Assembly (NCBI GenBank): GCA_023420435.1
Contig: JAEZWE010000084.1
Location: 1 to 38,022 of the forward strand
Source of the DNA: Bacteroidota bacterium
GTDB lineage: Bacteria; Bacteroidota; Bacteroidia; Flavobacteriales; Weeksellaceae
DNA length: 38,022 bases
Reading direction: 5' to 3'
Position numbers and translations under genes: made by a program. The notes beneath the pieces were generated by a model. That model did no database searches. It saw nothing but the letters and a program-made list of their open reading frames with translations, and was not told the origin of the DNA. Below, one piece after another: positions 4,628-37,242 of this stretch; positions within the stretch are counted from its first letter, which is position 1; each line of letters begins with the position of its first letter.

Positions 4628-4673
4628 ATTATTTTTTGCAATTAGAAAAGTATTTTTTCTAAATCTGATAAAA

Positions 4674-12988: not shown

Positions 12989-15316
12989 ATGAAAAAATTT
13001 CTATTTATACTTTCGATATTCATTGCCAATTTTGGTTTTTCACAATCCGATTGTATTTCTGCCTTACCTGTTTGTGGTAACTCCAATATTTCTTATAATC
13101 CTCAAAATGCAGGAAATATTGCAGAACAAACCAGTGCAAGTTGCTTAGCATTAGAACATTATTCAGTTTGGTACACGTTTTCAATAGCTACCAGTGGTAC
13201 CTTAGAATTTACCATTGCTCCTGATGTTAATTCAGACGACTACGATTTTGCATTGTATGGACCCAACATCAACTGTGCAACCCATGATTTTGGAAATGCA
13301 ATCCGTTGTAACTTTTCTGGTGCTGATGGACCAACAGGGATTGGAACGCCACCTGCAGGAGCCAGTGCAGGAGCTTGGGATACCGCTTTGAATGTTACGG
13401 CAGGACAAGTATATTACCTTTTGATTGATAACTATGTTCCACAAAATGGATTGAACGGTTTTAATTTATCTTGGGGTGGAACTGCAGCATTAACTTCTCC
13501 TTTTAATACAACCATTCAGCCCAATCCTTTTATAGCACCGGGCGTTAATCAAAGTGGTCAAATTTTGATTTGTACTGATCCTCAAATGTTTGATTTTTCT
13601 ACTTTGTCCTCAGGAATTTTAAATGGAAATGCTAATTTCAGTATCAGTTATTACATGAATAGTAATAATGCTTTAACTGGAACAAGCCCTATTACTACCC
13701 CAATAAATGTAAATACTACCAATATTTACTATTATGCCATTTCATATACCGATCCTACAAATCCTAACAATCCTGCAAACGTTTGTAAGGAATACGGGGA
13801 AATAACTTTTCAGTCCGGAGCTATTGTCGTAAATGATCAAACTGTAATGGGCTGTAATAACAATAATACCGGAATTGGCGTTTTCGATATTACAACAGCA
13901 ACACCCAATGTTTATAATGATCCAACAGCGGTAGTTCAATATTATCCAACAGTAGCAGATGCTAATGCTGGAACTAATGAAATAACTACAAACCTTACCA
14001 ACTATGTAACTACACCAAAACAAATTTTTGCAAAAGTTACTACCACCCAAGGTTGTACCAATATTGCCACTATCACTTTAAGTTTACTTCCTTTATTACC
14101 TGTTAACGATGTTACAATTAACGCATGTAATAATAATAATTTTGGTATTGGTAGTTTTAATTTAACTCTAGCGAATGTTTATCCAACAGATCCAGCTGCG
14201 CCAAAGAAATATTTCCCGACAGTGAATGATTTATTGAACAACACCAACGAAATTACAAACCCTACCATTTACTCAAGTGCGGAAGGACAGGTTTATGTTG
14301 AGGTTACAGGGGCGCAAGGTTGTAAAAATTACGCAGCCATTAATTTAGCATTCTATCCGGTTGTTGTTACCCAAAATGCAACCATTTCCTCCTGTTTTAT
14401 TGAAGGAAATCCAAATACTGCGGAATTTGATTTGGGTAGTGCGGTAGTTTCTACACAGTTTGGAACTACAAATACTTATTACCCGTCTCTTCAGGATGCC
14501 ATTAACCAAAACAATCAAATTCAGAATCCTAATGGGTATGTTTCAACTTCAACATCAATTTATGTTAGAGTTACGGACTCCAATTTATGTTGGGGAACTG
14601 CTAAAATTAATTTGGAGGTAATTCCACCTGTTTATTCTACTGTTTTGAAAGATAAAATAATCTGTATTGAAGATACCACTACTTTAGATGCAGGTTCTGG
14701 TTTTGAATCTTATTTATGGAGTACAGGAGCAACAACCCAATCTATTACAAACGTTTCTGTTGGGGAATATTGGGTAATTTTAACCACTGAAGGTTGTCCA
14801 ACTTTACAAAAAGTGAAAGTAATAAAGTCGCCTTCTCCAGTTATTACCAATATTGAAATTACTAATAACAGTGCTACTGTTGCGGTAAGTGGTGGAACAC
14901 AGCCTTATCAATATTCATTGGATGGAACAACCTGGCAAGATTCTAATATTTTTAATGAATTACCTCGTGGACAAAACTTTGTTTATGTAAAAGACAGTTA
15001 TGATTGTGATCCAATTATGGTAGAAATTACCGTTCCAAATTTGGTAAATGCAATTACACCTAACAGTGACGGCGTTAATGATTATGTAGATTATACTGCT
15101 TTAAGCTATAAAAAAGATCTTATTCTTAACGTATATGACCGATATGGAAATAAAATGTTCCAAGCTGATAAATCAAACGGTTACAAATGGGATGGAAGAT
15201 CTAGCGGCAAAAAAGTGACAACAGGAACTTATTGGTACAGTATTACCTGGGTAGAACCAAACACCAACGTACCTGTAAAATACACCGGTTGGGTTTTGGT
15301 GAAAAACAGAGAATAA
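12989..15316 (+). CDS. T9SS type-B C-terminal sorting-domain cargo protein (large repetitive adhesin-like protein)
   Basis: 775 aa with a signal peptide. Four Cys-pair repeats of about 90 aa and a SprB-type repeat (GGTQPYQYSLDGTTWQ). The C-terminus NAITPNSDGVNDY...YDRYGNKMF...WDG...GTYWY...GWVLVKNRE matches the gliding-motility-associated C-terminal domain. Confidence 0.85.
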   Translation: MKKFLFILSIFIANFGFSQSDCISALPVCGNSNISYNPQNAGNIAEQTSASCLALEHYSVWYTFSIATSGTLEFTIAPDVNSDDYDFALYGPNINCATHDFGNAIRCNFSGADGPTGIGTPPAGASAGAWDTALNVTAGQVYYLLIDNYVPQNGLNGFNLSWGGTAALTSPFNTTIQPNPFIAPGVNQSGQILICTDPQMFDFSTLSSGILNGNANFSISYYMNSNNALTGTSPITTPINVNTTNIYYYAISYTDPTNPNNPANVCKEYGEITFQSGAIVVNDQTVMGCNNNNTGIGVFDITTATPNVYNDPTAVVQYYPTVADANAGTNEITTNLTNYVTTPKQIFAKVTTTQGCTNIATITLSLLPLLPVNDVTINACNNNNFGIGSFNLTLANVYPTDPAAPKKYFPTVNDLLNNTNEITNPTIYSSAEGQVYVEVTGAQGCKNYAAINLAFYPVVVTQNATISSCFIEGNPNTAEFDLGSAVVSTQFGTTNTYYPSLQDAINQNNQIQNPNGYVSTSTSIYVRVTDSNLCWGTAKINLEVIPPVYSTVLKDKIICIEDTTTLDAGSGFESYLWSTGATTQSITNVSVGEYWVILTTEGCPTLQKVKVIKSPSPVITNIEITNNSATVAVSGGTQPYQYSLDGTTWQDSNIFNELPRGQNFVYVKDSYDCDPIMVEITVPNLVNAITPNSDGVNDYVDYTALSYKKDLILNVYDRYGNKMFQADKSNGYKWDGRSSGKKVTTGTYWYSITWVEPNTNVPVKYTGWVLVKNRE
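13541..14629 (+). repeat. four tandem protein-level repeats of about 90 aa inside the T9SS cargo gene
   Basis: Repeats at aa 185-279, 280-369, 370-458 and 459-547. Recurring C-NNNN-GIG-F(D/N)... YYP(T/S)(V/L)xDAxxxxNxI...(I/V)(F/Y)(A/V)xVT...GC...I(T/N)L pattern. Confidence 0.7.
15047..15313 (+). other. T9SS type-B (CHU_C / gliding-motility-associated) C-terminal sorting domain
   Basis: NAITPNSDGVNDYVDY...LNVYDRYGNKMFQ...GYKWDGRSSGKKVTTGTYWYSI...YTGWVLVKNRE. Confidence 0.8.
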
Positions 15317-20966: not shown

Positions 20967-23648
20967 ATGACAAGTAATTTACTTAGGAAGTCACTTTTCT
21001 CCACTGTAATTACACTTTCGACGGCGAGTATTTATTTTGCTCAAACGAATGATTCAATTCAAAGAGAAAAAGACATTGAAGCGGTTGTTTTAACTGGTGT
21101 AGCAGATATTGCTAAAGACAGAAAAACGCCGGTTGCTGTTTCTACCATTAAAGAAGCACAGATTGTTGAAAAATTAGGAAACCAAGAATTTCCCGAAATT
21201 TTGAAAAGTACACCTTCAATCTATACTACTAAAGGTGGTGGTGGTTTTGGAGACGGACGTATGAATGTTCGTGGCTTTGATACCAACAATTCTGCAGTAA
21301 TGATCAATGGTGTTCCTGTAAACGGAATGGAAGATGGTGCTGTTTATTGGAGTAACTGGTCTGGACTTTCTGATGTAACTTCTGCGATGCAGATCCAAAG
21401 AGGTTTAGGTTCTTCAAAATTAGCGATTGCCTCTGTTGGTGGAACAGTAAATATTATCACCAGAGCTGCAGACAAAAAAAGAGAAGGAAATGCAACTGTA
21501 AGTGTTGGTAACGATGGTTATTTGAAAACTTTGTTTTCTTACAACACAGGAAAATCTGCAAAAGGTTGGGCTACTTCATTTTTAATGTCAAGAACAGTTG
21601 GAAGTACTTATATTGATGCTTCTGAATTTGAAGTTTATAACTATTACCTTGCTGTGGGATATCAAAAAGAAAAACATGATTTTCAGTTTACTTTTACGGG
21701 AGCTCCACAATGGCACATGCAAAACTTCCAAAGTTCAATTGCCAATTTCATTAAATACGGAAACGGTGTAGATACACCAAACAGAAGATATAACTCAAAC
21801 TGGGGTTATCTTAATGGTGAAGTAATGTCTCAATCAATTAACTTCTATCACAAACCAGTAATGTCTTTCAACTGGGATTGGAAAATTTCTGAAAAATCTA
21901 AATTATCTACGGTTGGTTATGCTTCTTGGGGAAGAGGTGGAGGAACTGGTGTTATTGGTTCAGTAAACGGAACTAACATCAATTCTTTACCAAAAACTAC
22001 AGACGGACTTTTAAGATTTGATGATATTGTAGCTTGGAACCAAGGACAAAATGTTATTTGGAATCCAAATGTTGCTAACAACACAGGAATCAACAAAGTA
22101 AATGCAAATCCAGGAGTTGTAACAAGAACTAATGGTTTGGCTAGAAGAGCAAGTATCAATTCACACGACTGGTACGGAATTTTATCCAACTTCCAACATA
22201 AAATTAATGAAAATTGGAATTACTCTGCCGGTGTTGACATGAGATATTATTATGGATTTCACCCAGGTGTTATCACCGATCTTTGGGGAAATACAAAGTA
22301 TATCGAAATGGATAACAAAAACATTCCTGCAGGATATGACGTAACTTTAGTTCAAGCGCCTAGACCTTCTGCAAATCCTTTCGCTAAAGCTTTGAAAGAT
22401 GAATCTCAGGTAGCTTACAGAAATTATGACGGTGAAGTTCTTTGGGGTGGTTTATTCGGACAATTGGAATATTCTAAAGATAAATTATCTGCATTTATCC
22501 AAGGTTCCATTTCAGAACAAGGATATAAAAGAATTGACAACTGGTTGGTTGATGGAACAATTCAACAAGGAAAAATTGTAAACAAAGAAACGAGCACAAA
22601 ATTCCTTTTCGGATATAATGCAAAAGCCGGAGCTAACTATAACATCGACGAAAAACACAATGTTTTTGCTAATGTTGGTTACTATGAAAAACAACCTTTG
22701 TTCAACTCTGTATACAACTCTCCTTTAACAGATGGTAGAGCTACAGGAAGTCAACAAGTTGTAAATCCATTATTAACGAACGAAAAAATTGCTTCTGCAG
22801 AATTAGGTTATGGTTTCAGAAGTGGAATTTTCATTGCGAATGTTAACTTGTATTACACATCTTGGAAAGACAGATATAACAGATTTACTGGACTTACCGT
22901 TCCGAATCCTGCAACACCAGGACAAAATTATAACAGACCTTACGCTAACTTAACAGGAATTCACGAAATCCACATGGGAGTTGAATTTGAAGGAACTTTG
23001 AAGGCTACAGATTATTTGTCATTCAACGGAATGTTTTCACTTGGTGATTGGAAATATAAAGGAAATGCACAAGGTAACCTTTATGACGAAAACGGAACGC
23101 CAATTATGTTGAACGGAAATTCTAGTGTTGAATTCGCTTTAGATGATGTAAAAGTTTCTGATGCTGCACAAACAACAGCTGGTTTAGGATTTACTTTAAA
23201 ACCTGTTAAGGATTTAAGTATTTTCGGAAACTGGAACTATTACGACAACTATTATGGTTTAATTAATTTCAGTGATATCGCAATGACAAATGCAGATGGA
23301 TCTATTAAGAATAATGGTAGAAAAGGTGCTTTAGAATATCCTAGCTACAATTTATTTGATGCTGGTTTGTCATACGGAATTAACCTTAACAACGGACACA
23401 AAGTTGTTCTTACAGGAAATGTATATAACTTGTTTGATACTACTTATATTTCTGATGCAAGAACTTCAAATCACGTTAAAGATGTTTCAGATTTCAAAAC
23501 ATCGAGTAATACTGATGCACAAGCTCAGGCATTGTATGATACCTACATCAATAATCCATTAAATTTCTACAAAGGAATTGACACAAGTAACACGGTTTAC
23601 TTTGGTTTTGGAAGAACTTGGTCTGCATCAATCTCTTACAAATTCTAA
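20967..23648 (+). CDS. TonB-dependent outer-membrane transporter
   Basis: 893 aa. Signal peptide, plug motifs (MNVRGFDTNNSAVMINGVPVN, NWSGLSDV, IQRGLGSS), a long beta-barrel, and terminal ...SISYKF. Confidence 0.9.
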   Translation: MTSNLLRKSLFSTVITLSTASIYFAQTNDSIQREKDIEAVVLTGVADIAKDRKTPVAVSTIKEAQIVEKLGNQEFPEILKSTPSIYTTKGGGGFGDGRMNVRGFDTNNSAVMINGVPVNGMEDGAVYWSNWSGLSDVTSAMQIQRGLGSSKLAIASVGGTVNIITRAADKKREGNATVSVGNDGYLKTLFSYNTGKSAKGWATSFLMSRTVGSTYIDASEFEVYNYYLAVGYQKEKHDFQFTFTGAPQWHMQNFQSSIANFIKYGNGVDTPNRRYNSNWGYLNGEVMSQSINFYHKPVMSFNWDWKISEKSKLSTVGYASWGRGGGTGVIGSVNGTNINSLPKTTDGLLRFDDIVAWNQGQNVIWNPNVANNTGINKVNANPGVVTRTNGLARRASINSHDWYGILSNFQHKINENWNYSAGVDMRYYYGFHPGVITDLWGNTKYIEMDNKNIPAGYDVTLVQAPRPSANPFAKALKDESQVAYRNYDGEVLWGGLFGQLEYSKDKLSAFIQGSISEQGYKRIDNWLVDGTIQQGKIVNKETSTKFLFGYNAKAGANYNIDEKHNVFANVGYYEKQPLFNSVYNSPLTDGRATGSQQVVNPLLTNEKIASAELGYGFRSGIFIANVNLYYTSWKDRYNRFTGLTVPNPATPGQNYNRPYANLTGIHEIHMGVEFEGTLKATDYLSFNGMFSLGDWKYKGNAQGNLYDENGTPIMLNGNSSVEFALDDVKVSDAAQTTAGLGFTLKPVKDLSIFGNWNYYDNYYGLINFSDIAMTNADGSIKNNGRKGALEYPSYNLFDAGLSYGINLNNGHKVVLTGNVYNLFDTTYISDARTSNHVKDVSDFKTSSNTDAQAQALYDTYINNPLNFYKGIDTSNTVYFGFGRTWSASISYKF

Positions 23649-23728: not shown

Positions 23729-24163
23729 ATGGATTACAGTTTAATGCTTAACGCACACCGTGGATTTGCTTACTTAATTTTATTAGCTTCCGCATTATTC
23801 ATTATTGCATTATTGGCTACAATGTTTGGTTATTCAGGAAAAATTTCAAAATTTTTGAGAAAATCAACACTTTTTACAATGATTCTCTTTCATACCCAAG
23901 CTTTGATTGGTTTAATTATGTTATTTTTCTTTTCTCCAGGCTTTAAAGCTGCCAAAGAAGCAGGAACTTTGATGAGTGATTCAGTTTCAAGAAACACTTA
24001 TGTTGAACATCCAACTGCCATGATTATTGCAGCAGTTTTAATGACGATTTTGAATAAAAAATTCAAAACCAACGATAAATTGCAAATGACTTGGGTAATA
24101 ATGGGAGTTATTGCACTTGCATTAATGCTTTGGGCTTTCCAGTGGAACAGACTTTTTGCATAA
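23729..24163 (+). CDS. integral membrane protein of unknown function (4 TM)
   Basis: 144 aa with four hydrophobic segments. No recognisable motif. Confidence 0.6.
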   Translation: MDYSLMLNAHRGFAYLILLASALFIIALLATMFGYSGKISKFLRKSTLFTMILFHTQALIGLIMLFFFSPGFKAAKEAGTLMSDSVSRNTYVEHPTAMIIAAVLMTILNKKFKTNDKLQMTWVIMGVIALALMLWAFQWNRLFA

Positions 24164-25237: not shown

Positions 25238-26248
25238 ATGGAAGTTCAAAAAAACACCGAAAGAAACAAATTCAAATTCCAAAGAAATGTTGCCATTGTT
25301 GGAATCATCCTTTTCATTGCAAAAATTTTGGCTTGGAACATCACCAATTCTGATGCGGTTTTTTCTGATGCCATGGAAAGCATTGTCAATATTATTGCCG
25401 CTTTTTTAGGACTTTATTCTCTTTATTTGGCTGCAAAACCAAAGGATTTGGATCATCCTTATGGACATGGAAAAGCCGAATTTATAACTTCCGGTGTTGA
25501 AGGAGCATTGATCATTTTTGCAGGAATTATGATCATTATTGAAGCTTCAGATTCGCTTCTTCACGGAAATCAGTTAAAAGAACTTGATTACGGTATTTTG
25601 ATTGTGGCTATAACTGCTATTATTAATTTTTATCTTGGTTTCATATCCGTAAAAAAAGGAAAAAAAGAAAACTCTGCGGTTCTAATTTCTTCAGGAAAAC
25701 ATTTACAAAGTGATACCATTACCACAGCAGGCGTTGTTTTGAGTTTGATTTTGGTTTATTTCACTAAAATTTATTGGATCGATTCCTTTGTAGCCTTAGG
25801 TTTTGGCGGTTATATTATGTTTGTCGGTTACAAAATAATACGCAGTTCTTTAAGCGGAATTATGGACGAAGCCGATTTAGAAATGCTTTCCCGACTTGCA
25901 AAATTTCTAAATGAAAACCGAAAACCGGAATGGATTGATCTTCACAATACAAGAATTCAGCAGCATGGAAGCCGACTTCACATCGATGCACATCTCACTT
26001 TGCCTTGGTATTTTGAACTTCGAGAAGCCCATGAGCAAATGGAAGAAATGATAAAACTTATTGCAAAAAATACAGACAGAAAAGTGGAGTTCAACTTTCA
26101 TATGGACGATTGTAAACCTTTTTCTTGCGAAATTTGTCAAATTTCAGATTGTAAAGTGCGACAAAACTTATTTGTAAAAAAAATCAACTGGAACGTGAAA
26201 AACATTGCCCAAATTGACAAACATAATGTATCAACAAAAGATAATTAA
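25238..26248 (+). CDS. cation diffusion facilitator (CDF) metal efflux transporter
   Basis: Start at ATG 25238. TM region with SDAMESIVN...DHPYGHGKAEF. Cytoplasmic domain, then an extra Cys-rich tail. Confidence 0.9.
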   Translation: MEVQKNTERNKFKFQRNVAIVGIILFIAKILAWNITNSDAVFSDAMESIVNIIAAFLGLYSLYLAAKPKDLDHPYGHGKAEFITSGVEGALIIFAGIMIIIEASDSLLHGNQLKELDYGILIVAITAIINFYLGFISVKKGKKENSAVLISSGKHLQSDTITTAGVVLSLILVYFTKIYWIDSFVALGFGGYIMFVGYKIIRSSLSGIMDEADLEMLSRLAKFLNENRKPEWIDLHNTRIQQHGSRLHIDAHLTLPWYFELREAHEQMEEMIKLIAKNTDRKVEFNFHMDDCKPFSCEICQISDCKVRQNLFVKKINWNVKNIAQIDKHNVSTKDN

Positions 26249-26682
26249 ATCTTTTCATATTGCTTTGCCATAGCTCTTCTATAGTAAAACAGTGGAATAA
26301 TCAGCAATAAAATCAAAGGTTGAATGACAAATCTTCTGATATAAAATGAAAAAAGATAACCAATTTCAAATTGGGTAGAAACGCAATAAAAATAAATGGG
26401 AAAAGTAATTAGGAATACAATTCCAATTAAAACGACAGCTTGTACTGTCCATTTCTTATTTAAAAATAGCGCTTGAACAATAACTGCTGAGAAAAAAAGA
26501 TTCAGAAAAAATCTAAAAAAATGGCTTAAAATCAATTTTCCCCATTCAAAATCCGGAAAAACAGCTCCTTTACTTGCCTGATGAAAAAAATCAATAAAAG
26601 GATCATAAAAAGCTTGCTCTTCAACGACTCTTACACCAATTAATCCGCAGATTCCGAAAAGAAACAAAAACCATCTAAGCAT
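26245..26682 (-). CDS. exosortase F system-associated membrane protein (putative)
   Basis: 145 aa multi-TM protein. Its start overlaps the xrtF-like stop by 8 nt (ATGCTTAG). FYDPF motif near the N-terminus. Family assignment comes from context and memory. Confidence 0.6.
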   Translation of the reverse strand: MLRWFLFLFGICGLIGVRVVEEQAFYDPFIDFFHQASKGAVFPDFEWGKLILSHFFRFFLNLFFSAVIVQALFLNKKWTVQAVVLIGIVFLITFPIYFYCVSTQFEIGYLFSFYIRRFVIQPLILLLIIPLFYYRRAMAKQYEKI

Positions 26683-27208
26683 TTTTACTTTTCTTTAAAG
26701 CAAAATAATTAATCCAAACCAACCACAAAACGACGACGCTTCCATAAATTATTGCCGGGAAAATATAATCGTGAAACATTTTTCCTTCCGGTGGATAAAA
26801 GTAAAGCACCCAATTTAATCCAGCAATGCGTAAAACATTCATTATGTGAAGTAAAACCAGTCCAGCAATAGCAAATACAAAAGTTTTTAAACCTTTATAA
26901 AAAGCAAAAATAAAAGCCAGAAAAAGAATCATCACCGAAATTGCGTTGCAACCTTCCACCATTCTGGAAACATATTTGTCAATAACGATGAACCTTGCAG
27001 CTTGTTGATTTTCCAAAATTTCAATTTTAGAAGAAATTCCAAAAAAATTTTGAACTGCAGTTACTTGTTCCCCAACAAAAACCGAAAAAGGATCCAGAGA
27101 AATTCTTCCAGTTCTATCCAAATAAACCTGATACAGAAAAACCATCACAAGATAAATGATGACAAACCTCAAAAGTATTTTCAGAATAGGTTTAAAGTCG
27201 TTGAACAT
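26675..27208 (-). CDS. xrtF: exosortase family protein XrtF (putative)
   Basis: Start set at ATG 27208 (MFNDFKPILKILLRFVIIYLV...). Polytopic membrane protein with the exosortase-type residues MVEGCNAIS (Cys), NVLRIAGL (Arg) and MFHDYIFP (His). Confidence 0.75.
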   Translation of the reverse strand: MFNDFKPILKILLRFVIIYLVMVFLYQVYLDRTGRISLDPFSVFVGEQVTAVQNFFGISSKIEILENQQAARFIVIDKYVSRMVEGCNAISVMILFLAFIFAFYKGLKTFVFAIAGLVLLHIMNVLRIAGLNWVLYFYPPEGKMFHDYIFPAIIYGSVVVLWLVWINYFALKKSKNA

Positions 27209-27212
27209 AGCG

Positions 27213-27220
27213 CAAATATA
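27213..27220 (-). promoter_or_regulatory. -7 box TATATTTG, 4 nt before the xrtF ATG
   Basis: Minus strand reads tatatttg-cgct-ATG(27208). Confidence 0.5.
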
Positions 27221-27240
27221 GTAATTAACACTTAAATTGC

Positions 27241-27248
27241 TATATTTG
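27241..27248 (+). promoter_or_regulatory. -7 box TATATTTG for the amgK-like operon
   Basis: 16 nt upstream of TTG 27265. It forms a mirror image of the box at 27213-27220. Confidence 0.5.
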
Positions 27249-27264
27249 TAAAACACTCTTACCA

Positions 27265-28278
27265 TTGGAAAAAGCACAATTTTTTTTTGAAAATTATATA
27301 CAGGAAAAAGCAGAATCTTTTACTGCTTTACCTCAAAGTGGATCTGCAAGAATTAATTATATAGCAGAAACCTCCAAAGGAAAATTTGTAATCACCCAAA
27401 ATGAAAACATTCGGGAAAATGAAGCATTTTTTTATTTCTCTGAAGTTTTTTCTTCCTTAAATCTTAATACTCCAAAAATTTTTAAAATTTCTGAAGATCG
27501 TAAAACCTATATTCAGGAACATTTGGGTGAAAAAACTTTTTCAGAAATTATCGCTGAAGAAGGATTAAACAGCCGAACTGAAAATCTGGTAAAACAAACA
27601 TTAGATCAGCTTTATAACCTTCAAAAAGAAACCGAAGGTAAAATAGATTATTCCAAAACCTTTGAATATGAAAGTTATGATGAACTACCTATTTTAAACG
27701 ATCTTTTTTATTTTAAAAAAATGTTTGTCGACATTTTGGAAATTGAGTATCACAAATCTTCATTGCTTCAGGAATTCAAAAAAATTGTTGAAAAAATTGA
27801 AAATCTAGAACCTAAAGGTTTAATGATTCGGGATTTTCAATCCAGAAATATTCTTGTGAACAGAGAGGATAAGGTATTTTTCATCGATTATCAGAGCGCG
27901 ATGAAAGGACCTTTAATGTATGATGTCATTTCATTTTTACATCAGGCTAAAGCCAATTTTCCAAAATTTTTCAAAGATGAAATGACGCAGTATTATCTTT
28001 CAAAACATTCTGAAGAAAACCAAATTCAACTAAAAAACTCGGTGGAAATTCTTCAGCTTATTCGTTATCTTCAAGTTCTTGGAGCGTATGGTTTTAGGGG
28101 GTTAATTCAGCGTAAACCACATTTTATTTCCAGCATTCAGCAAGGCATGGAAAATCTCATTGAATTTTCAAAAAATTGGGACGAAATGCAAAAATATTCT
28201 GAGCTTCAGAAAATAATCAACGTTCTAGGAAAGGAGGAAACCAAAATAAAAATTCAACAAATTTTAAATACAAAATAA
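27265..28278 (+). CDS. APH-fold sugar kinase, AmgK-like (anomeric MurNAc/GlcNAc kinase candidate)
   Basis: 337 aa. LPQSGSARINYIA, IRDFQSRNILV (Brenner-type catalytic loop) and IDYQSAMKGPLMYDVISFL correspond to the AmgK-family HRDxHSRNL / DFQDA..GP..YDL.SLL motifs. TTG start is forced: the next in-frame ATG is about 150 codons in. Confidence 0.7.
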   Translation: MEKAQFFFENYIQEKAESFTALPQSGSARINYIAETSKGKFVITQNENIRENEAFFYFSEVFSSLNLNTPKIFKISEDRKTYIQEHLGEKTFSEIIAEEGLNSRTENLVKQTLDQLYNLQKETEGKIDYSKTFEYESYDELPILNDLFYFKKMFVDILEIEYHKSSLLQEFKKIVEKIENLEPKGLMIRDFQSRNILVNREDKVFFIDYQSAMKGPLMYDVISFLHQAKANFPKFFKDEMTQYYLSKHSEENQIQLKNSVEILQLIRYLQVLGAYGFRGLIQRKPHFISSIQQGMENLIEFSKNWDEMQKYSELQKIINVLGKEETKIKIQQILNTK

Positions 28279-28287
28279 ATTTTCGAA

Positions 28288-28689
28288 ATGTTATACATTG
28301 AAATTCATAGTTTCTCGTACAAAAAGGGAGGTATTCCAAAAGATAATTCCGGAAACGGAGGTGGGTTTGCTTTCGATTGTCGCGGAATTTTAAACCCGGG
28401 AAGAATTGATGAGTATAAAGCACAAACCGGAAAAGATCAACCTGTACAAGAATTTTTGGAAAACAATACGGAAATGCCGAGATTTCTTGATCTTATAAAA
28501 AATTTGGTTTCTATTACGATCGATGATTATTTAGCCCGCAATTTCGAAAATCTACAAATCAATTTCGGTTGTACCGGCGGACAACATCGCTCTGTTTATT
28601 CTGCCGAAAAAATAGCAGAATTTATCCGCGAAAAATATCCTCAAACAAAAGTGACGGTAAACCATGACGAACAGCCCCAACTAAATTAA
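28288..28689 (+). CDS. stand-alone RapZ C-terminal-domain protein (no P-loop N-domain)
   Basis: 133 aa. HSFSYKKGGIP, FDCRGILNPGR, TGKDQPVQEFLENNTEMPRFL and NFGCTGGQHRSVYSAEKIAEFI match the C-terminal half of RapZ/YhbJ as I recall it (GCTGGKHRSV core). Confidence 0.75.
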   Translation: MLYIEIHSFSYKKGGIPKDNSGNGGGFAFDCRGILNPGRIDEYKAQTGKDQPVQEFLENNTEMPRFLDLIKNLVSITIDDYLARNFENLQINFGCTGGQHRSVYSAEKIAEFIREKYPQTKVTVNHDEQPQLN

Positions 28690-29425: not shown

Positions 29426-30184
29426 ATGAGTAAAATAAAACGTGGAAAAGGCCTCACCAAAGTAATTGCTGGAAACGAATTTGAAATTGACCAAAAAATT
29501 CAAAGTCATTTTGCTGAAAAAACCTGGGACGAAACGATTACCAAAGACAGCTGGATGGTTTTCAAAATTATGGCGGAACTGGTGGATGGTTACGAAAAAA
29601 TGGCGAAAATTGGTCCTTGTGTTTCGATTTTTGGATCTGCAAGACTGAAAGAAGATGATAAATATTACAAAATGGCTGTAGAAATTGCGGAAAAAATTAC
29701 AGAAATTGGTTTCGGAATTATCACCGGTGGTGGTCCCGGAATTATGGAAGCCGGAAACAGAGGCGCAAGAAATGCCGGTGGAAAATCAATCGGTTTGAAT
29801 ATTGAACTGCCTTTTGAGCAACATTTTAATCCGTATATCGACAAGAATTTTTCTCTGGATTTTAATTACTTTTTTGTAAGGAAAGTAATGTTTGTAAAAT
29901 ATTCGCAAGGTTTTATTGTAATGCCTGGTGGTTTTGGAACTTTAGATGAACTTTCTGAAGCGATCACTTTAATACAAACCCAAAAAATTGCCCGATTTCC
30001 TATTGTTTTGGTAGGTTCAGAATTTTGGTCTGGATTAATTGATTGGTTTAAAAATACGTTATTAAAGAATGGAATGATCTCCGAAGAAGATTTGAATCTT
30101 TACCGTATCGTAGATACCGCAGATGAAGCTGCAGCGCATATTAAGGCGTTTTATGATAAATACTCCATCAACGTCAATTTCTAG
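29426..30184 (+). CDS. LOG-family (TIGR00730) nucleotide 5'-monophosphate phosphoribohydrolase
   Basis: GGGPGIMEAGNRGA and PGGFGTLDEL signature motifs. 252 aa. Confidence 0.9.
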   Translation: MSKIKRGKGLTKVIAGNEFEIDQKIQSHFAEKTWDETITKDSWMVFKIMAELVDGYEKMAKIGPCVSIFGSARLKEDDKYYKMAVEIAEKITEIGFGIITGGGPGIMEAGNRGARNAGGKSIGLNIELPFEQHFNPYIDKNFSLDFNYFFVRKVMFVKYSQGFIVMPGGFGTLDELSEAITLIQTQKIARFPIVLVGSEFWSGLIDWFKNTLLKNGMISEEDLNLYRIVDTADEAAAHIKAFYDKYSINVNF

Positions 30185-30776: not shown

Positions 30777-30805
30777 GAAAGACCGTCATTACTGACGGTC
30801 TTTTC
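30777..30805 (-). terminator. rho-independent terminator for the minus-strand TBDT-lipoprotein operon
   Basis: aaagaccgtca / ttac / tgacggtcttt; on the minus strand it is followed by tttctttatt. Confidence 0.65.
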
Positions 30806-30825: not shown

Positions 30826-32940
30826 TTAATTACTTCCTTTTACTTTTACATTATCAATTTCCCATGTTGTAGCCGCTGATGAAGTAGAAGTATATTTGAA
30901 CGCAATTCTGATGGATTTATTTACAAAAGCATTCAAACTTAAATTTCCGGAATTTGTCCATGAATTGAACGCATTAAGATTGGTATCCAACGTTGGTGTT
31001 AACTGTACCCAAGTTGTTGTAGCTGCAGAACCTGTATAGTTTTCTGTAACATACACTTCTAAAGCATTACCGTTATATCTTCCATCAGAATCAAAACTCA
31101 TACTTGCTGAAGAAAGTCCATTCAAATTAATCGGTTTTGAAACCAACCAGTCTTCATTCACATTATTTCCTCCTTGATATCCGTTCATTACCGCACATGG
31201 GGCAGGATTTCCAAAATTTTGAATATTCCAAACTTGTGTTCCTGTAACATTTTCTGCAGTCCAATTATCGGTTAAACTTCCTGAGAAAGTTTCTGTAAAA
31301 ATAGTTGCCGGAGGAATCGTTCCATCACATCTTGCATTATCGAAATCGGCATGAATTTGTTTAGGAATCCAAAGTTGATATGTTCCGTTGAAAATACTCA
31401 AAATTGCATAAACATCACCTTTTCCACCATCAACTTCACTTCCGGCAAATGTGGCAAAATTGCTTGTTCTAAGGATAATGGTATTTCCGTTACAGTCTTT
31501 TAAAGTTCTGTTGGTTGCGGCAGTTCCTGCGTATGGTTTTCCTAAATCTGCATCAATAAATTCAACATTTTTGATTTTGATCCATCTTCCTACATCTCCT
31601 GCCGTAAGTTGAGTAATGGTTCTTTCGGTAGGAACAACTGCTGTTGCCGGCATATTGCTATCGAAGAAATGTTTGTAAACATCACCTTCCACAACTTGTC
31701 CGATATTTCCATTAAAAGGTTGTCCCAATTGAGTTTCTCCGCCTGAATTTCCTACAGAAAGACCTTTAAGTTTGATATAAACTTCTTTTCCTACTTTAAA
31801 TCTGCTGTCAAGATATAAGTTAAGTTTATTAACATTCACACGAATACCGCCTGTAGCATCTTCCACATAAACATATTTGTAAAGATTTCCGGTTTCATCA
31901 TTGGCTGTTACTTTGGCTTTCAAAAGGAAATCTCCTTGAATAAGATTTGTAGTAGTACCAGGTGTAAACGAAGAAGGATTATAAAGGGCTTTTACGTCTG
32001 CAACGGTTTTCACGGTAAGTGAAGTTGGATCTAAAGTACAAGGATTTGTAGTAAGACCATCCAATCTTGGGAAAGTATTCATATCAAGATCTGAAAGTCT
32101 GTTGATATACATTTGGTAAGTACTATTGAATTTACTGAAAATTCCCACAAATTTTCCATTTCCAGAAGGTAAAATTTGGTTAGCAAAAGAAGCAAAACCA
32201 CTGTTTCTTACCACCGCAGTTCTTGTATAATTTCCTGTTGTAGTATTGTAACCTTCTGCCCCAATTTGTCTGTCCACCGAAGTTCCATCCGGAGCATATG
32301 TATTACAAAGCGCAAGTTTGGTAAATTCAACATTATCAACCTGGATTAAAGCTCCCAAAAGATTTTGATTGGCCGCAAATTCTGAAATCTTCAAAACTTT
32401 AGGTACCATTTGTACTTTTTCGGAACATGATCTAATAATATGTTTTGAAACCATATTTTCAGGAATACGAGAAACCGCATCTGCTCCAGTTGCAGCTCCA
32501 TCTTTAATACCTAATTGCACTAAACCACCATAAGTTCCAATAGCAAGATCATTTAATTTGATATAAATTTTCTTTCCTTGAGGAAAGGTTGTATAAGTAC
32601 TAACTGCATCAATACTGATGGTAAAACCATGTGTTGGATTTGTTGGACTGTCCTGAATATAAATGGTTTTATAAATATTTCCTGTTTCATCAGAAGAGGA
32701 AACATAACCTTCTAAAATTTTCTCAGAAGTGGGATCATTAGGATCAACAGATGGGAAAATATAAGTGGTGGAACCATGTAAAGCCTTTACTTGTGCAATG
32801 GTCATATTGGCTGTAAGATCCTGGCACTCATAATTTGCCAAATTGGGTTCTTCGTACTTGTCATCATGAACGCAACCTACTACCAATAATGCAGCAAAAA
32901 AAGCGTATAATAAATTAATAAATGAATTGTATTTTTTCAT
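30826..32940 (-). CDS. large surface lipoprotein with an internally duplicated module and a C-terminal beta-sandwich domain (DUF5689-like x2 + choice-of-anchor-J-like)
   Basis: 704 aa. Lipobox LLVVGC (Cys23) followed by VHDD. Two homologous modules (aa 39-287 and 301-534). C-terminal domain FTETFSG..NWT..WLVSKPINL...WEIDNVKV. Domain names are from memory. Confidence 0.7.
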   Translation of the reverse strand: MKKYNSFINLLYAFFAALLVVGCVHDDKYEEPNLANYECQDLTANMTIAQVKALHGSTTYIFPSVDPNDPTSEKILEGYVSSSDETGNIYKTIYIQDSPTNPTHGFTISIDAVSTYTTFPQGKKIYIKLNDLAIGTYGGLVQLGIKDGAATGADAVSRIPENMVSKHIIRSCSEKVQMVPKVLKISEFAANQNLLGALIQVDNVEFTKLALCNTYAPDGTSVDRQIGAEGYNTTTGNYTRTAVVRNSGFASFANQILPSGNGKFVGIFSKFNSTYQMYINRLSDLDMNTFPRLDGLTTNPCTLDPTSLTVKTVADVKALYNPSSFTPGTTTNLIQGDFLLKAKVTANDETGNLYKYVYVEDATGGIRVNVNKLNLYLDSRFKVGKEVYIKLKGLSVGNSGGETQLGQPFNGNIGQVVEGDVYKHFFDSNMPATAVVPTERTITQLTAGDVGRWIKIKNVEFIDADLGKPYAGTAATNRTLKDCNGNTIILRTSNFATFAGSEVDGGKGDVYAILSIFNGTYQLWIPKQIHADFDNARCDGTIPPATIFTETFSGSLTDNWTAENVTGTQVWNIQNFGNPAPCAVMNGYQGGNNVNEDWLVSKPINLNGLSSASMSFDSDGRYNGNALEVYVTENYTGSAATTTWVQLTPTLDTNLNAFNSWTNSGNLSLNAFVNKSIRIAFKYTSTSSAATTWEIDNVKVKGSN
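31339..32826 (-). repeat. protein-level tandem duplication (two modules of about 240 aa) within the lipoprotein gene
   Basis: Matched strings: TIAQVKALH/TVADVKALY; ILEGYVSSSDETGNIYKTIYIQD/LLKAKVTANDETGNLYKYVYVED; GKKIYIKLNDLAIGTYGGLVQLG/GKEVYIKLKGLSVGNSGGETQLG; IQVDNVEF/IKIKNVEF; VVRNSGFASFA...FVGIFSKFNSTYQMYI/ILRTSNFATFA...VYAILSIFNGTYQLWI. Confidence 0.8.
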
Positions 32941-32959
32941 TTTTTGAAATTTTTTCTAA

Positions 32960-35746
32960 TTAAAATCTTAAATAAACATTAGCGAAGAAAGTTCTACCTC
33001 TATCATACCAAAGTTTTGGTCCGAAATAAGGGTATTTTCTGTTAGCATCCATAATAGCTTCAGGGAAGTTGGCATTTCTACCTTGTTCAAAACCACCGGT
33101 AACATAATCTCTGTTATTCAGGATATTGTTTACACTAAAGCTAATTCCTGCTCTGTATTTTCCGAAAAGGAAAGATTTTCCGACATTGGCATTCAACATA
33201 AACTGGTCTTCAAATTTTTGTTGAGCGGTTAATCTTTCAATATCTTCAGCGGTTACTCCAGGATAATTATCTCCTGTTGTTGGATCTGTATATAACGCTG
33301 CTGTTTTATTAAGCGCAGAAAAGTCCAAATATTGATCTTGAAGATAATTAGCAGAAGCACCAATCCACCAATATTTTGGAGAATTGTATCTTAAACCTGC
33401 AGAATACGCTTTTTGAGGAGTTCCTGCAATTTTATATCCTTTAATGTTGGCTTTACCCCATTCATTAGAACTACGATAACCGAAATCGTCATCAAAAGTG
33501 CTTACATTTGGGGTATTGGTAATTTTATAATCACCAATACTTGCTACTGCATTTGCGGTAAGAGTTGGTGTAATTTTTACTTCTGTTCCTAATTCTATCC
33601 CTTTATATTCTTTATCTACACCGCTTAAAATTTCTGCAATTAAAGCATTTCCGCCACTGTCTGTTCCGGAAGTTATATCAGCATAATATCTGCTAACTTC
33701 TGTTGCATTATTAATGGTGGTATAATAAGCTCCCAATCTGATTTTCAAAATCTGACCTCTCAAAATATAACTTAAATCGTTAGAATTGATGATCTGGTTC
33801 TGAACACTTGGCGTAATCATATTGGTTACTCTTGGGCTGATGAAAATTTCATTCAAAGTTGGCGCAAGACTGAAAAACGCTCCGTTGTATACGATAAAGT
33901 TTTTACCGTTGATTTTATAGGTAATTCTTCCTTTCAACCCAGCATCAAAAGCGTCAAAAAGTTCACTTTTACCTTTAGAATTATAAATTGCATGGTTGAA
34001 TTTTCCTTCTCTTTGAGATTCTGAATAAGAAGAAAAAACAGACGCCATGAAATTCCATTTTGGAAGATCAACTTCCGAAGAAACATTCATTGAATACATA
34101 TTTCTTAGTAAGTCGTAAGAATATTGTGTTCTGTCTCCAACTTGCAGTTTTCTGTTAGGATTGTCGATATCATTAGGTGCATCATAATTAAATGCATTAA
34201 GATCATTGGCATAATCCGCTCCTAAAAGATCTACGATTTCACGGAAATTATCCGATTTCAAATTTTGAAAATTGAAATTCAAGTTCAACTTCCAGTTACT
34301 TGCTAATTTGGTATCGAAATGAGAAGCAAAATTTAAAGTTTTATCTTTATTAACGTCTGCAACTACAGTATAACGAGCACCTATTTCTTTATTTTGATAG
34401 TTGGCGTCGTAAAGTGACATCCAATTGATTTGACTGGTATTAGGATCAGTTCTCCATTGGTTTACATAAGCGTCGTACTGAGCTTGTTCAGCATCAGTAA
34501 TAGTTGCTCCTCCATCAGATGTGGTATCCAAAAAGTCATTATATAAATAACCTGGCATTTTTCTGTAATAGGTTGGTTTTGGATCTGCGGCATGAAACCA
34601 ATCCAATCTGCTTCTACTGTCTTTTCCAACTTGGTAAGATAAAGTATTGGTCCAGTTAGAGGTTTTTCCTAATTTCAAATAATCGGTGATCATGAAAATC
34701 GGTTCAAAAACTTTTCTAATTCTTGAATTCCTTTTTTCACCATCTTGCCAACCCCAATATTCGTTGTAGTTTTTACCCATTAAATCAAAAGTTTCCTGAG
34801 TATTTGGAGAATTACCTGCTCTGTAAGTTGGGGCTCCAAAAGCAGTAAGGTTTATGGCATGTCTGTCGCTAAATTGCTTTTCAATAGCACCAAAATAAGC
34901 GTAAGAATCTTGATAAGTACCATCAATTACACCATCATCGGCCCATCTTCTGCTTCCAGAAAATGTGAAAGCCCAACCATTTTTCGTTAAACCGGAAGAA
35001 TACGTTGCCATTGCTCTATGGAAATAACTTCTGTTTGTAAAAGAATATGCAAGAGAAGTCTGTTTTCTGTAGCTGGAAGCTCTTGTGTTATAATAAACTA
35101 CACCTCCCAAATTTCCAAAAGTGTATTCTGAAGGAGTAATATTATCGACATTTTCATAAGGATATCTGGTAACATCATTCAAACCTCCCCAGTTACTAAA
35201 ATCGACCTTTCCGTCATCGTTTTTAGACATAGGAACTCCATTAAAAAGAATATCTTCAAATCTGTTTTCTACCCCTCTTGGACGGAACCAATAAGCCCCA
35301 AGCTCAAAAGCAGAAACATTTTGAAAAACATCTCTTCCAGAACTTAATAAACCTACTGTAGGCTGCATTGCAGATCCTCCTTCGTCAATATCTCCTGCAG
35401 AATCGTCAATCACAATAACGCCGGCATCAGAAATGGCCACACCCAACTGAATAATTCCTAAGTCCTTTCTTTTTTCACCTTCCAAAACATCAAATTCCAC
35501 CGTTTTAGATTCGAAATTTGGCTTTGCAATAGTAATTTGATAATGTCCTGGCATTAAATCGACAAATTGAAAATATCCAATTTTGTCCGCAGTAACATCC
35601 TTAACCGATTGTGCTAAATCTACTTCAGCACTTTCAACCGGTTTCCCTTGTAAATCTTGAACATACGCATACACTGTTGTCTGAGCATAATAAAACGATG
35701 CTGGCAACAAAGTAAATAACGAGATGAGAGATAGTTTTCTTATCAT
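32960..35746 (-). CDS. TonB-dependent transporter with N-terminal carboxypeptidase-regulatory-like domain
   Basis: 928 aa. Signal peptide; CarboxypepD_reg-like YAYVQDLQGKPVESAEVDL...GYFQFVDLMPGHYQITIAKPNF; plug (NWGGLNDV); long barrel; terminal ...NVYLRF. The lipoprotein gene follows after 19 nt. Confidence 0.9.
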   Translation of the reverse strand: MIRKLSLISLFTLLPASFYYAQTTVYAYVQDLQGKPVESAEVDLAQSVKDVTADKIGYFQFVDLMPGHYQITIAKPNFESKTVEFDVLEGEKRKDLGIIQLGVAISDAGVIVIDDSAGDIDEGGSAMQPTVGLLSSGRDVFQNVSAFELGAYWFRPRGVENRFEDILFNGVPMSKNDDGKVDFSNWGGLNDVTRYPYENVDNITPSEYTFGNLGGVVYYNTRASSYRKQTSLAYSFTNRSYFHRAMATYSSGLTKNGWAFTFSGSRRWADDGVIDGTYQDSYAYFGAIEKQFSDRHAINLTAFGAPTYRAGNSPNTQETFDLMGKNYNEYWGWQDGEKRNSRIRKVFEPIFMITDYLKLGKTSNWTNTLSYQVGKDSRSRLDWFHAADPKPTYYRKMPGYLYNDFLDTTSDGGATITDAEQAQYDAYVNQWRTDPNTSQINWMSLYDANYQNKEIGARYTVVADVNKDKTLNFASHFDTKLASNWKLNLNFNFQNLKSDNFREIVDLLGADYANDLNAFNYDAPNDIDNPNRKLQVGDRTQYSYDLLRNMYSMNVSSEVDLPKWNFMASVFSSYSESQREGKFNHAIYNSKGKSELFDAFDAGLKGRITYKINGKNFIVYNGAFFSLAPTLNEIFISPRVTNMITPSVQNQIINSNDLSYILRGQILKIRLGAYYTTINNATEVSRYYADITSGTDSGGNALIAEILSGVDKEYKGIELGTEVKITPTLTANAVASIGDYKITNTPNVSTFDDDFGYRSSNEWGKANIKGYKIAGTPQKAYSAGLRYNSPKYWWIGASANYLQDQYLDFSALNKTAALYTDPTTGDNYPGVTAEDIERLTAQQKFEDQFMLNANVGKSFLFGKYRAGISFSVNNILNNRDYVTGGFEQGRNANFPEAIMDANRKYPYFGPKLWYDRGRTFFANVYLRF

Positions 35747-35788
35747 AACTTAAAATTTTTCCCTTTTTTATGAAAATATTTGGGGCGA

Positions 35789-35796
35789 CAAATTTA
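35789..35796 (-). promoter_or_regulatory. candidate -7 box TAAATTTG for the TBDT operon (second copy at 35800-35807)
   Basis: Reverse complement of caaattta; 42 nt upstream of ATG 35746. Two copies lie 11 nt apart. Confidence 0.3.
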
Positions 35797-35910
35797 AGTC
35801 AAATTTATGATAACTTAAACATTTTTAACAATTTAAAAATATAATTTTTGTCATTAAATTTTATTAACATTCAAAATAAATAATTAATAAAACATTTTTT
35901 CTTTTTTGGC

Positions 35911-35918
35911 ATATTTTT
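35911..35918 (+). promoter_or_regulatory. candidate -7 box TATTTTTG for the EEP gene
   Basis: 74 nt upstream of ATG 35993. Confidence 0.3.
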
Positions 35919-35992
35919 GATGAAAATAAGTATTAACAAAAAAAATCAGAAATTTGATTAATTTAGCAAACTCAAATCTTGAATATAAAACA

Positions 35993-37189
35993 ATGAAAAA
36001 AATTGTAATTCTTTCTTTTTTAATGATAATAAGCTGGACAACAGCACAGAAAACACAAGTTCGCCGCGCAACGGTCGCTTTTTTAAATGTTGAAAACCTT
36101 TGGGACACCATTCCTTCCGCGGATTATATTGATGGTACAAAAGATATCCATAACCCCGCTTATCACAGAAGTATCCCTTTAGACTCCGTAAAATATTTGG
36201 AAACTACTGAAGATTATAAAGGACCTTGGAGCGATGAACTTCTTACGGGTAAAAAAGTGATAAGATATCAAATTTTATCTGATGATTTCACCACCAAAAG
36301 TGTGAAAAATTGGAATACTCCAAAATATAAAATTAAATTGGCCAATGAAGCAAAAGTGATTTCTGAGCTTGGTCGACAATATACTAATGATAACCCTGCT
36401 ATCGTAGGTCTTATTGAGGTTGAAAACAGACAAGTAATCGAAGATCTTATTAAAGAACCCGTGCTTGCAAAAAGCAACTATGGAATTGTTCATTATAATT
36501 CTTTTGATGCCAGAGGAATTGACGTAGCCATTATTTACCAAAAAGGGCGTTTTTCACTAATTAATTCCTATAAAAAAGAAGTTAAAATTTTTGATGATGA
36601 AGGAAAAAGATCTTACACCAGAGATATTTTAGTAGCTATTGGTTACTTAGATGGTGAAAAAACCGCTATTTTTATGAATCACTGGCCATCCAGAAGTGGC
36701 GGTGAAGCGCGTTCTTTACCAAGACGTATTGCTGCAGCTACCGTTCTTAAAAATGAAATGGACAATATTTCTAAGGAAAATCCGGGAATAAAAATATTTT
36801 CAATGGGTGATTACAATGATGATCCGGTGAGCCCAAGTTTAAAAAAACATTTAGGCGCTGTAGAAAATCCATCAGATTTAAGTGATTCCTCACCTTATTA
36901 CAATTTGATGTGGAAACATTACAAAGCTGGAGTTGCTTCCTTAGCTTACAGAGATGCACCGAATCTTTTCGACCAAATTATTGTTTCGAAAAATTTATAT
37001 TCTTCAGAAAAACTTACCCCAACTTATACAGTTTATAAAACTGAAATTTATGCCCCTGAATATTTGAAAAATTCACAAGGACAATGGAAAGGCTATCCTT
37101 TGCGTTCTTGGGACGGAGATCGGTTTACCGGTGGTTACAGTGATCACTTTCCTGCGTTTTCGGTCGTTCAGAAAGTGTACACTAAATAA
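35993..37189 (+). CDS. secreted endonuclease/exonuclease/phosphatase (EEP)-fold hydrolase
   Basis: Start at ATG 35993 (MKKIVILSFLMIISWTTAQ signal peptide). EEP motifs VAFLNVENLWD (N-x-E), GLIEVEN, NHWPSRSGG, MGDYND, YSDHFP (catalytic His). Confidence 0.85.
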   Translation: MKKIVILSFLMIISWTTAQKTQVRRATVAFLNVENLWDTIPSADYIDGTKDIHNPAYHRSIPLDSVKYLETTEDYKGPWSDELLTGKKVIRYQILSDDFTTKSVKNWNTPKYKIKLANEAKVISELGRQYTNDNPAIVGLIEVENRQVIEDLIKEPVLAKSNYGIVHYNSFDARGIDVAIIYQKGRFSLINSYKKEVKIFDDEGKRSYTRDILVAIGYLDGEKTAIFMNHWPSRSGGEARSLPRRIAAATVLKNEMDNISKENPGIKIFSMGDYNDDPVSPSLKKHLGAVENPSDLSDSSPYYNLMWKHYKAGVASLAYRDAPNLFDQIIVSKNLYSSEKLTPTYTVYKTEIYAPEYLKNSQGQWKGYPLRSWDGDRFTGGYSDHFPAFSVVQKVYTK

Positions 37190-37190
37190 T

Positions 37191-37227
37191 AAAAAAAGGG
37201 TTCAGAAAATTTCTGAACCCTTTTTTT
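37191..37227. terminator. bidirectional rho-independent terminator between the convergent EEP and sodA genes
   Basis: aaaaaaagggttcaga / aaatt / tctgaacccttttttt: A-run and T-run on both sides. Confidence 0.8.
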
Positions 37228-37242
37228 ATTTTTCTTCTCGTA

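Follow-up and report, generated by a model that had tools for sequence, protein, structure and literature searches.

The window analysed here is a stretch of 38,022 nucleotides (nt) of a metagenomic Weeksellaceae contig (JAEZWE010000084.1, assembly GCA_023420435.1), exact copies of which are present in ENA and Logan assemblies. Our subject is a three-gene locus within it that encodes a surface lipoprotein of 704 amino acids (aa), a divergent TonB-dependent transporter (TBDT; hereafter, the barrel) of 928 aa and an enzyme of the endonuclease/exonuclease/phosphatase (EEP) class of 398 aa (Table 1). The barrel and lipoprotein genes are separated by 19 nt with no terminator-like site between them, and a terminator-like hairpin 23 nt past the lipoprotein stop codon closes the barrel-lipoprotein operon, whereas the EEP gene is a separate transcription unit that is read divergently from the far side of an AT-rich spacer. 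An earlier note, made from the nucleotide sequence alone, had singled out these three genes as a candidate uncharacterised capture-and-uptake system, and its coordinates, the 19-nt and 246-nt spacers and the Cys23-VHDD start of the mature lipoprotein are all present as it gave them. The start of the EEP gene required a choice: the open reading frame (ORF) list alone gives TTG 35954, the public gene call is ATG 35993, and the MKK/MRK-type N-termini of 7 aligned EEP homologues favour the latter.

Table 1. Features of the three-gene locus (positions in the window)
Feature	Positions	Strand	Remarks
Terminator-like hairpin	30778..30803	minus	11-pair stem with 5 GC pairs, then a T-rich tail
Lipoprotein gene, 704 aa	30826..32940	minus	from the ORF list
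Choice-of-anchor J / DUF5017 jelly-roll, aa 548-700	30841..31299	minus	NF038128
DUF5689 module 2, aa ~301-540	31321..32040	minus	paralogue of module 1
DUF5689 module 1, aa ~41-295	32056..32820	minus	predicted two consecutive OB-like barrels
Signal peptidase II (SPII) signal peptide with lipobox LVVG-C23	32872..32940	minus	next four codons are V-H-D-D
Barrel (TBDT) gene, 928 aa	32960..35746	minus	from the ORF list
Candidate TonB box AGVIVIDD, aa 108-115	35402..35425	minus	between N-domain and plug
CarboxypepD_reg N-domain, aa 25-92	35471..35674	minus	PF13620, E = 7.9e-11
Divergent AT-rich spacer, 246 nt	35747..35992	both directions	GC 16.7%; candidate control region
EEP enzyme gene, 398 aa	35993..37189	plus	public gene call and homologue N-termini
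Two-way terminator-like hairpin	37188..37230	both directions	common to the EEP gene and sodA

Within the spacer, Bacteroidota-type TAnnTTTG motifs point toward both the EEP and the TBDT genes, with TATTTTTG located 74 nt ahead of the EEP ATG and TAAATTTG located on the minus strand 43 and 54 nt ahead of the TBDT ATG; these motifs are putative promoter elements. No Rfam elements were found in the locus, and a sigma-70 scan of it gave a result no better than shuffles. The neighbours of the trio are sodA, rho and the genes for a DUF6702 protein, a LOG-family protein and MurU, with no further nuclease or lipoprotein gene among them.

The lipoprotein starts with MKKYNSFINLLYAFFAALLVVGC23-VHDD, and the VHDD that follows the lipobox cysteine fits the lipoprotein export signal (LES), C-x(1,2)-(D/E)(D/E), in the definition quoted in PMC12478041. 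The pattern C-V-[HQ]-D-[DE] is kept in 73 of the 80 Weeksellaceae orthologues from the genome scan described below, and distant homologues bear CVQDDE, CKKEDFDE, CVDRDFDE and CVKTEFDE. Thus, given the lipobox and the CVHDD signal, the protein is likely to be exported to the cell surface. The remainder of the polypeptide consists of three domains that broadly correspond to those delineated in the earlier note. Its two homologous modules of about 240 aa are 32% identical to each other across 251 aa (E = 1e-31), far beyond chance, and Pfam recognizes two DUF5689 stretches (E = 4.8e-126; the second at aa 309-525). Its C-terminal beta-sandwich domain is a choice-of-anchor J jelly-roll (NF038128, 64.8 bits with a cutoff of 30 bits, E = 1.1e-17; profile match to PDB 8jiy, E = 7e-14), so that the two families proposed there for the lipoprotein, DUF5689 and NF038128, are both above their cutoffs.

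A confident AlphaFold2 (AF2) model of the lipoprotein, built from a 44-sequence alignment (mean pLDDT 91, pTM 0.78), folds each DUF5689 module into two consecutive small beta-barrels. The first barrel of the module shows, in the DSSP assignment, the oligonucleotide/oligosaccharide-binding (OB) order of elements, namely beta1-3, a short helix and beta4-5. The Foldseek search with the whole lipoprotein was dominated by the jelly-roll (gingipain adhesin, Eph ligand-binding domain, MAM, CBM4 and CBM16 folds) and also yielded a match to the tandem-OB single-stranded DNA binder Teb1 AB (E = 5.4e-5 over 244 columns, with a TM score of only 0.31). The weak PF01336 OB-fold match in module 2 (E = 0.12) and the JGI label 'YdeI (BOF family)' on one lipoprotein relative are hints only. 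One whole-protein model and a low-TM match thus suggest that the DUF5689 modules are OB-like, which is the fold that the earlier note had in mind. Sequence and profile searches of PDB detected no solved relative of the DUF5689 modules, of the barrel or of the EEP enzyme and its family PF19580.

The nearest named relatives of the window proteins come from Chryseobacterium, Kaistella and Marnyiella; identity to the listed relatives, the named ones being mostly from Chryseobacterium or Kaistella, is 57-92% for the lipoprotein and 70-94% for the barrel. In all, the lipoprotein has matches in 4,704 representative clusters (E <= 0.001), and the family architecture is modular: a protein can carry one to three DUF5689 modules and up to two jelly-roll (choice-of-anchor J) domains. 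It is DUF5689 that forms the conserved core, and not the jelly-roll, which seems to be lacking in forms of ~520 aa. Distant one-module proteins start like the first half-module of the window lipoprotein and continue like its last half-module (half-module scores of 73.9 vs 42.7 bits and 67.8 vs 55.5 bits in the one-module protein of the distant context L086); this a1-b2 chimera pattern fits L086 and another distant context, L084, and is ambiguous in L082. The pattern could result from collapse of the repeat or, equally, from slower change of the outer halves after duplication. In another contig (L090:3597-9017), outside any TBDT context, we observed a gene for a 1,806-aa protein with a Por_Secre_tail of the type IX secretion system (T9SS) that aligns with the window lipoprotein in five stretches (41% identity, E = 9.5e-111), the strongest of them covering the C-terminal jelly-roll. 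This suggests that the lipoprotein's domains are also used in secreted proteins that stand by themselves.

The barrel is a divergent but genuine TBDT. Pfam detects the carboxypeptidase-regulatory-like N-domain that was noticed earlier and nothing beyond it, even at E <= 10. However, when a profile of 31 barrel orthologues was compared, using hhalign, with the canonical Plug+barrel TBDT of the window (20967..23648), the two aligned over 623 columns, beginning in the region of the plug's RG motif, with a probability of 98.9% and E = 1.1e-17, and relatives of the barrel in other lineages have precomputed PF07715 and PF00593 matches. The AF2 model obtained from the 31 close orthologues is poor (mean pLDDT 54), and all 50 of the 50 best structural matches that Foldseek found with it are TBDTs. 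The segment AGVIVIDD, which is sited as in SusC-like proteins, is a plausible TonB box: the 31 orthologues show no variation at G109, D114 and D115 and almost none at A108, V110, V112 and I113. No SusD or SusC/RagA family match was found in Pfam or NCBIfam for the proteins of the locus, which bears out the description of the pair as a barrel with a surface lipoprotein partner that is not SusD-like. The canonical TBDT, a protein of 893 aa, is the closest relative of the barrel in the window; the next gene after it is a 144-aa ORF (23729-24163) with no family match.

The EEP enzyme belongs to the family PF19580 (Exo_endo_phos_3; 317.7 bits vs the gathering threshold of 27). The motifs that had been described as intact are confirmed as N32-V-E34, GDYND at 272-276 and SDH at 383-385, and the residues N32/E34, D273/N275/D276 and D384/H385 are invariant in homologues of 37-69% identity. 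The protein starts with a signal peptidase I (SPI) signal (..WTTA|QK) without a lipobox and ends directly after the SDH motif, without a T9SS C-terminal domain. These features favour a periplasmic location over secretion, contrary to the initial description of a secreted hydrolase. The enzyme shares the EEP catalytic core with the ExeM/NucH nucleases (NF033681) and aligns weakly with their catalytic part (20.3 bits, E = 2e-4). It is not a member of that family, for which the cutoff is 300, and lacks the extra domains and the anchor. The EEP enzymes of Weeksellaceae and of L086 contain an insertion of ~50 aa (DYIDGT...KKVIR, aa ~48-97) after the N-x-E motif that is missing from the homologues in two other distant contexts, L088 and L089.

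To estimate how far the three genes stay together, we used a genome scan anchored on the barrel, which retrieved the best 80 Weeksellaceae loci (60-82% identity; Riemerella is not among them). The lipoprotein gene lies 3' of the barrel gene in 79 of these loci, with a median gap of 13 nt over the 80, and 78 of the 80 lipoproteins have two DUF5689 modules. The divergent EEP gene is adjacent to the barrel gene in 77 of the 80 loci, that is, in every one of the 77 with room for it; all four absences, of either the lipoprotein or the EEP gene, are at contig ends. In contrast, 23 of the 75 loci with room have lost the downstream flank (DUF6702/LOG), and in 31 of 73 sodA is no longer directly adjacent. 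Thus, the trio, complete wherever the contig allows, outlasts local rearrangement. At greater distances, the barrel and the DUF5689 protein are adjacent in all seven independent contexts, five of which (L086, L088, L089, L092 and L094), with unrelated flanks, also have the divergent PF19580 gene. The identities of the enzyme, barrel and lipoprotein to the window proteins are 48/42/40% in L086, 44/34/31% in L088 and 34/31/30% in L089 (GC 49%), and the L092 and L094 trios come from a Saprospiraceae and a Chitinophagales metagenome-assembled genome (MAG), respectively. Accordingly, the arrangement is kept down to 31% TBDT identity and across two classes, and the synteny supports the view that the trio is a functional unit.

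Some genes near the trio, in the window and elsewhere, may be related to nucleotide or phosphorus metabolism. Genes for polyphosphate kinase and a Ppx/GppA protein are located ~1.2 kb downstream of the trio in L088 (L088:11329-14336), and in L089 an Endonuclease_NS gene (L089:686-1603) lies ~2.4 kb beyond the EEP gene, which places it ~3.6 kb upstream of the barrel gene; either could hint at a connection to phosphorus or DNA metabolism or be there by chance. In the window, a protein of the LOG/TIGR00730 family with weak similarity to PpnN-like nucleotide nucleosidases is encoded two genes from the locus (29426-30184), in a position that is syntenic in 53 of the 80 Weeksellaceae loci, and a link of this neighbour to nucleotide salvage is possible.

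The earlier note knew of no experimental description of such a system; genes of this type have in fact been described (PMC8459023, PMC12478041, PMC8851478). In Riemerella anatipestifer, RA0C_RS04915, a protein annotated only as CarboxypepD_reg, and RA0C_RS04920, with DUF5689, DUF5017 and choice-of-anchor J domains, form an operon, and strains from which either gene has been removed by markerless deletion are no longer naturally transformable (PMC8459023, 2021); the authors proposed that RS04920 binds double-stranded DNA (dsDNA) and RS04915 conveys it across the outer membrane, and reported Chryseobacterium homologues with 43% identity to RS04920 and 65.9% to RS04915. In the same species, mutation of tonBA inhibited transformation, whereas iron acquisition was reduced by mutation of tonBB and not by that of tonBA (PMC8383284). 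In Bacteroides thetaiotaomicron, ddbABCDEF is a DNA-utilization locus that is required for DNA depletion and for the production of uracil and xanthine (PMC12478041, PNAS 2025); the same region, BT3560-BT3563 of strain VPI-5482, was studied earlier (PMC8851478). According to PMC12478041, the TBDT DdbC (WP_008762511.1) and the DUF5689 protein DdbD (WP_048698952.1) are homologous to RS04915/RS04920, DdbB (WP_008767132.1), whose signal is of the SPI type, is able to degrade DNA in vitro, DdbD is modelled as a HIN-like dsDNA binder similar to the HIN domain of p202, AlphaFold3 predicts a DdbC-DdbD complex, and the DdbC types of B. thetaiotaomicron and Phocaeicola vulgatus are ~25% identical. The same paper states that the Riemerella locus (NC_017045:1014432..1020133) has a ddbB-like neighbour, and this interval of 5,702 bp would accommodate a three-gene locus of the kind found in the window. 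Another Riemerella gene name is attached to this family as well: inactivation of M949_1556 abolished reactivity with an anti-lipopolysaccharide (LPS) antibody, and the gene is listed among O-antigen genes. M949_1556 is reported to affect LPS antigenicity and virulence, and the DUF5689/DUF5017/choice-of-anchor J protein RA0C_RS04920 is reported to be essential for transformation.

Riemerella RS04910/RS04915/RS04920 offers the closest parallel to the window locus: it is found in the same family, Weeksellaceae, with the same gene order and operon structure, a barrel that is recognised only through CarboxypepD_reg, a lipoprotein composed of DUF5689 and DUF5017/choice-of-anchor J domains, and an absence of surface nucleases. 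Both loci comprise three genes if one counts the neighbour described as ddbB-like in Riemerella and the EEP gene, its putative counterpart, in the window. The ddb locus similarly combines a TBDT (DdbC), a DUF5689 protein modelled as a HIN/OB-like DNA binder (DdbD) and an SPI-signal protein of a nuclease family (DdbB) in a logic resembling that of polysaccharide utilization loci (PULs). It differs in having six genes, including those for the lipoprotein nucleases DdbA and DdbF and for DdbE, none of which is present in the window locus, and in its role, the catabolism of DNA to uracil and xanthine; Bacteroides is placed in this comparison in a different class (Bacteroidia), and the expected identity to the window proteins is low. 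Since the window locus lacks surface (SPII) nucleases, it is nearer the Riemerella transformation form than the Bacteroides feeding form. A SusC/SusD PUL shares with the window locus a TonB-dependent barrel with a CarboxypepD_reg domain followed by a polymer-binding surface lipoprotein, but in the window the partner has predicted OB-like barrels instead of a TPR-type fold, the enzyme belongs to a nuclease family and is not a glycoside hydrolase, and the SusC/RagA signature is missing. With uptake by type IV pili and ComEA, only the task is common, namely to bring DNA from outside the cell through the outer membrane so that it reaches ComEC; the parts are unrelated, with no pilus, secretin or ComEA in the window locus, and the energy would come from TonB rather than from pilus retraction.

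Considering these parallels, we conclude that the locus is most likely a three-gene outer-membrane DNA-uptake module of the same kind as Riemerella RS04915/RS04920 and DdbB/C/D. The system as such is already described experimentally, and the window locus, as a further member from the Chryseobacterium group, would add no new principle. The barrel would correspond to DdbC and RA0C_RS04915, the lipoprotein is most likely a DNA-binding partner of the DdbD/RA0C_RS04920 type, and the EEP enzyme is likely to be a periplasmic DdbB-like nuclease. Under this scheme, the lipoprotein would be exported to the cell surface and hold extracellular DNA on the four predicted OB-like barrels of its two DUF5689 modules, DNA binding being suggested by the published likeness of DdbD to the HIN domain of p202. 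The lipoprotein would sit on the barrel encoded in the same operon; TonB energy would open the barrel, and DNA or DNA fragments would enter the periplasm, a step for which the genetic support is that obtained in Riemerella only. There, the EEP enzyme would cut the DNA (nuclease activity is known for DdbB only), and the products would feed nucleotide salvage or, in a cell equipped with ComEC, DprA and ComF, natural transformation. The part of this scheme that comes from the present analysis is built on protein families, fold prediction, operon structure and conservation, from which, together with genetics and DdbB activity from other species, we infer DNA binding by the modules, dependence on TonB, the periplasmic location of the enzyme and its equivalence to DdbB. 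The binding, hydrolysis and import that the earlier note envisaged for nucleic acid or phosphoesters are supported, with extracellular DNA as the most likely substrate; with an enzyme that is likely periplasmic, however, hydrolysis would follow import and not precede it.

Several observations weigh against this interpretation. The kinship with the characterised proteins is deduced from shared families, published identity values and taxonomy, and the likeness of the EEP enzyme to DdbB and RA0C_RS04910 from gene position only. In the papers cited above, we found no biochemical proof of DNA binding by DUF5689. The score of the lipoprotein with NF052645, the 'M949_1556 family lipoprotein' model named after the Riemerella gene (435.6 bits, over aa 311-701), speaks for the kinship but is under the curated cutoff of 475 bits, because this 457-position model has one DUF5689 module and the lipoprotein has two; the L082 lipoprotein and 29 representatives, 30 one-module sequences in total, all stayed below 475 bits as well. 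The plug region of the barrel model is at pLDDT ~22. The EEP gene is missing beside the pair in two of the seven distant contexts (L084 and L093), and RA0C_RS04910 was not recovered in the transformation screen, which was non-saturating (PMC8459023). None of the competence genes comEC, dprA, comF and recA is found in the 38-kb window or its extension, and Flavobacterium johnsoniae is reported not to be naturally competent under conditions that transform R. columbina (PMC7965970).

The alternative that deserves the most attention is that the module serves feeding instead of transformation, i.e., that DNA or oligonucleotides are imported and digested by the periplasmic EEP enzyme for phosphorus, nitrogen or nucleobases, as with ddb, and that gene transfer does not benefit from it in this organism. 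Such a feeding system would differ from the DNA-uptake explanation, of which it is a variant, only in the physiological role, and we regard it as a real possibility, if somewhat short of an even chance. The requirement of ddbABCDEF for DNA depletion and nucleobase production, with the inconsistent DNA-uptake results in gut Bacteroidales (PMC12478041), speaks in its favour, as do the retention of the nuclease gene beside the pair in most lineages, the LOG/PpnN-like gene two genes away, the ppk/ppx genes near the L088 trio and the reported failure to transform F. johnsoniae. On the other hand, the closest characterised relative, from the same family Weeksellaceae, is a transformation system, and the locus lacks the surface SPII nucleases DdbA and DdbF that pre-digest DNA in Bacteroides.

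The other two alternatives concern the EEP gene and the substrate. That the EEP gene is a mere neighbour, with the two-gene operon as the actual unit and the enzyme engaged in an unrelated periplasmic role, could be argued from its separate transcription unit, from the contexts without an EEP gene beside the pair (L084/L085 and L093) and from the Riemerella data, where transcription of RS04910 was unaltered by the transposon (Tn) insertion in RS04915 and RS04910 was not a screen hit. Such an accidental association appears unlikely given that the gene is adjacent and divergent in all Weeksellaceae loci with room while both flanks rearrange, that it accompanies the pair in most of the distant contexts in two classes, and that the ddbB homologue is linked in Bacteroides and Riemerella as well (PMC12478041). 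Even less probable, in our view, is a non-DNA substrate, whereby the jelly-roll would bind a glycan or surface polymer, the locus would affect a surface antigen or LPS, and the EEP enzyme would be a phosphatase or phosphodiesterase. Although the jelly-roll is similar to CBM4/CBM16, gingipain adhesin and MAM folds, there are phosphatases among the EEP families, and the M949_1556 mutant lost its reactivity with the anti-LPS antibody, the family core is DUF5689 and the jelly-roll appears to be missing from some forms, the predicted topology and the Teb1 match point to OB-type modules, and the similarity of the enzyme to ExeM/NucH DNases is weak but specific. Furthermore, there is a direct genetic link to DNA uptake and depletion (PMC8459023, PMC12478041), and the LPS phenotype, which was that of a transposon mutant, could be indirect.

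Apart from the three-gene locus and its neighbours, the window contains several other genes and gene groups that stand out. Three tandem paralogous lipoprotein genes on the minus strand (1839-4641) encode proteins of 294, 293 and 311 aa with 24-27% mutual identity, each with a lipobox and without a Pfam family. A 133-aa ORF (28288-28689), located between the AmgK-like kinase and MurU-like genes and conserved in 52 of the 80 loci, has its only match in the C-terminal portion of RapZ, an RNase adapter (PF22740, PapZ_C). The exosortase XrtF and its associated membrane protein (TIGR04128 and TIGR04127) are encoded at 26245-27277 on the minus strand, and the sole recognised domain of a 775-aa protein at 12989-15316 is a type IX secretion tail of the CHU_C kind.

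The broader implication is a pilus-free route for DNA across the outer membrane in a widespread protein family. The window shows that, outside the published cases, the set of three genes has been retained in no fewer than two classes of Bacteroidota, and the two-module lipoprotein, the role of the PF19580 enzyme and DUF5689, a domain without a solved structure, are points of interest. It is a tentative and rather doubtful extension of these findings that the Chryseobacterium group and many environmental Bacteroidota import long dsDNA for natural transformation by such a pilus-independent, TonB-powered system, which would be made up of the lipoprotein with four OB-like barrels, the TBDT and, as the only nuclease, a periplasmic one. 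In this picture, the nuclease is the PF19580 enzyme, which would convert the incoming duplex into the single strand for ComEC, and the number of modules (1-3) would set the capture length or affinity. The family is relevant to the spread of resistance genes by horizontal transfer among Weeksellaceae and to the use of extracellular DNA as a source of phosphorus and nitrogen in soil, water and the gut.

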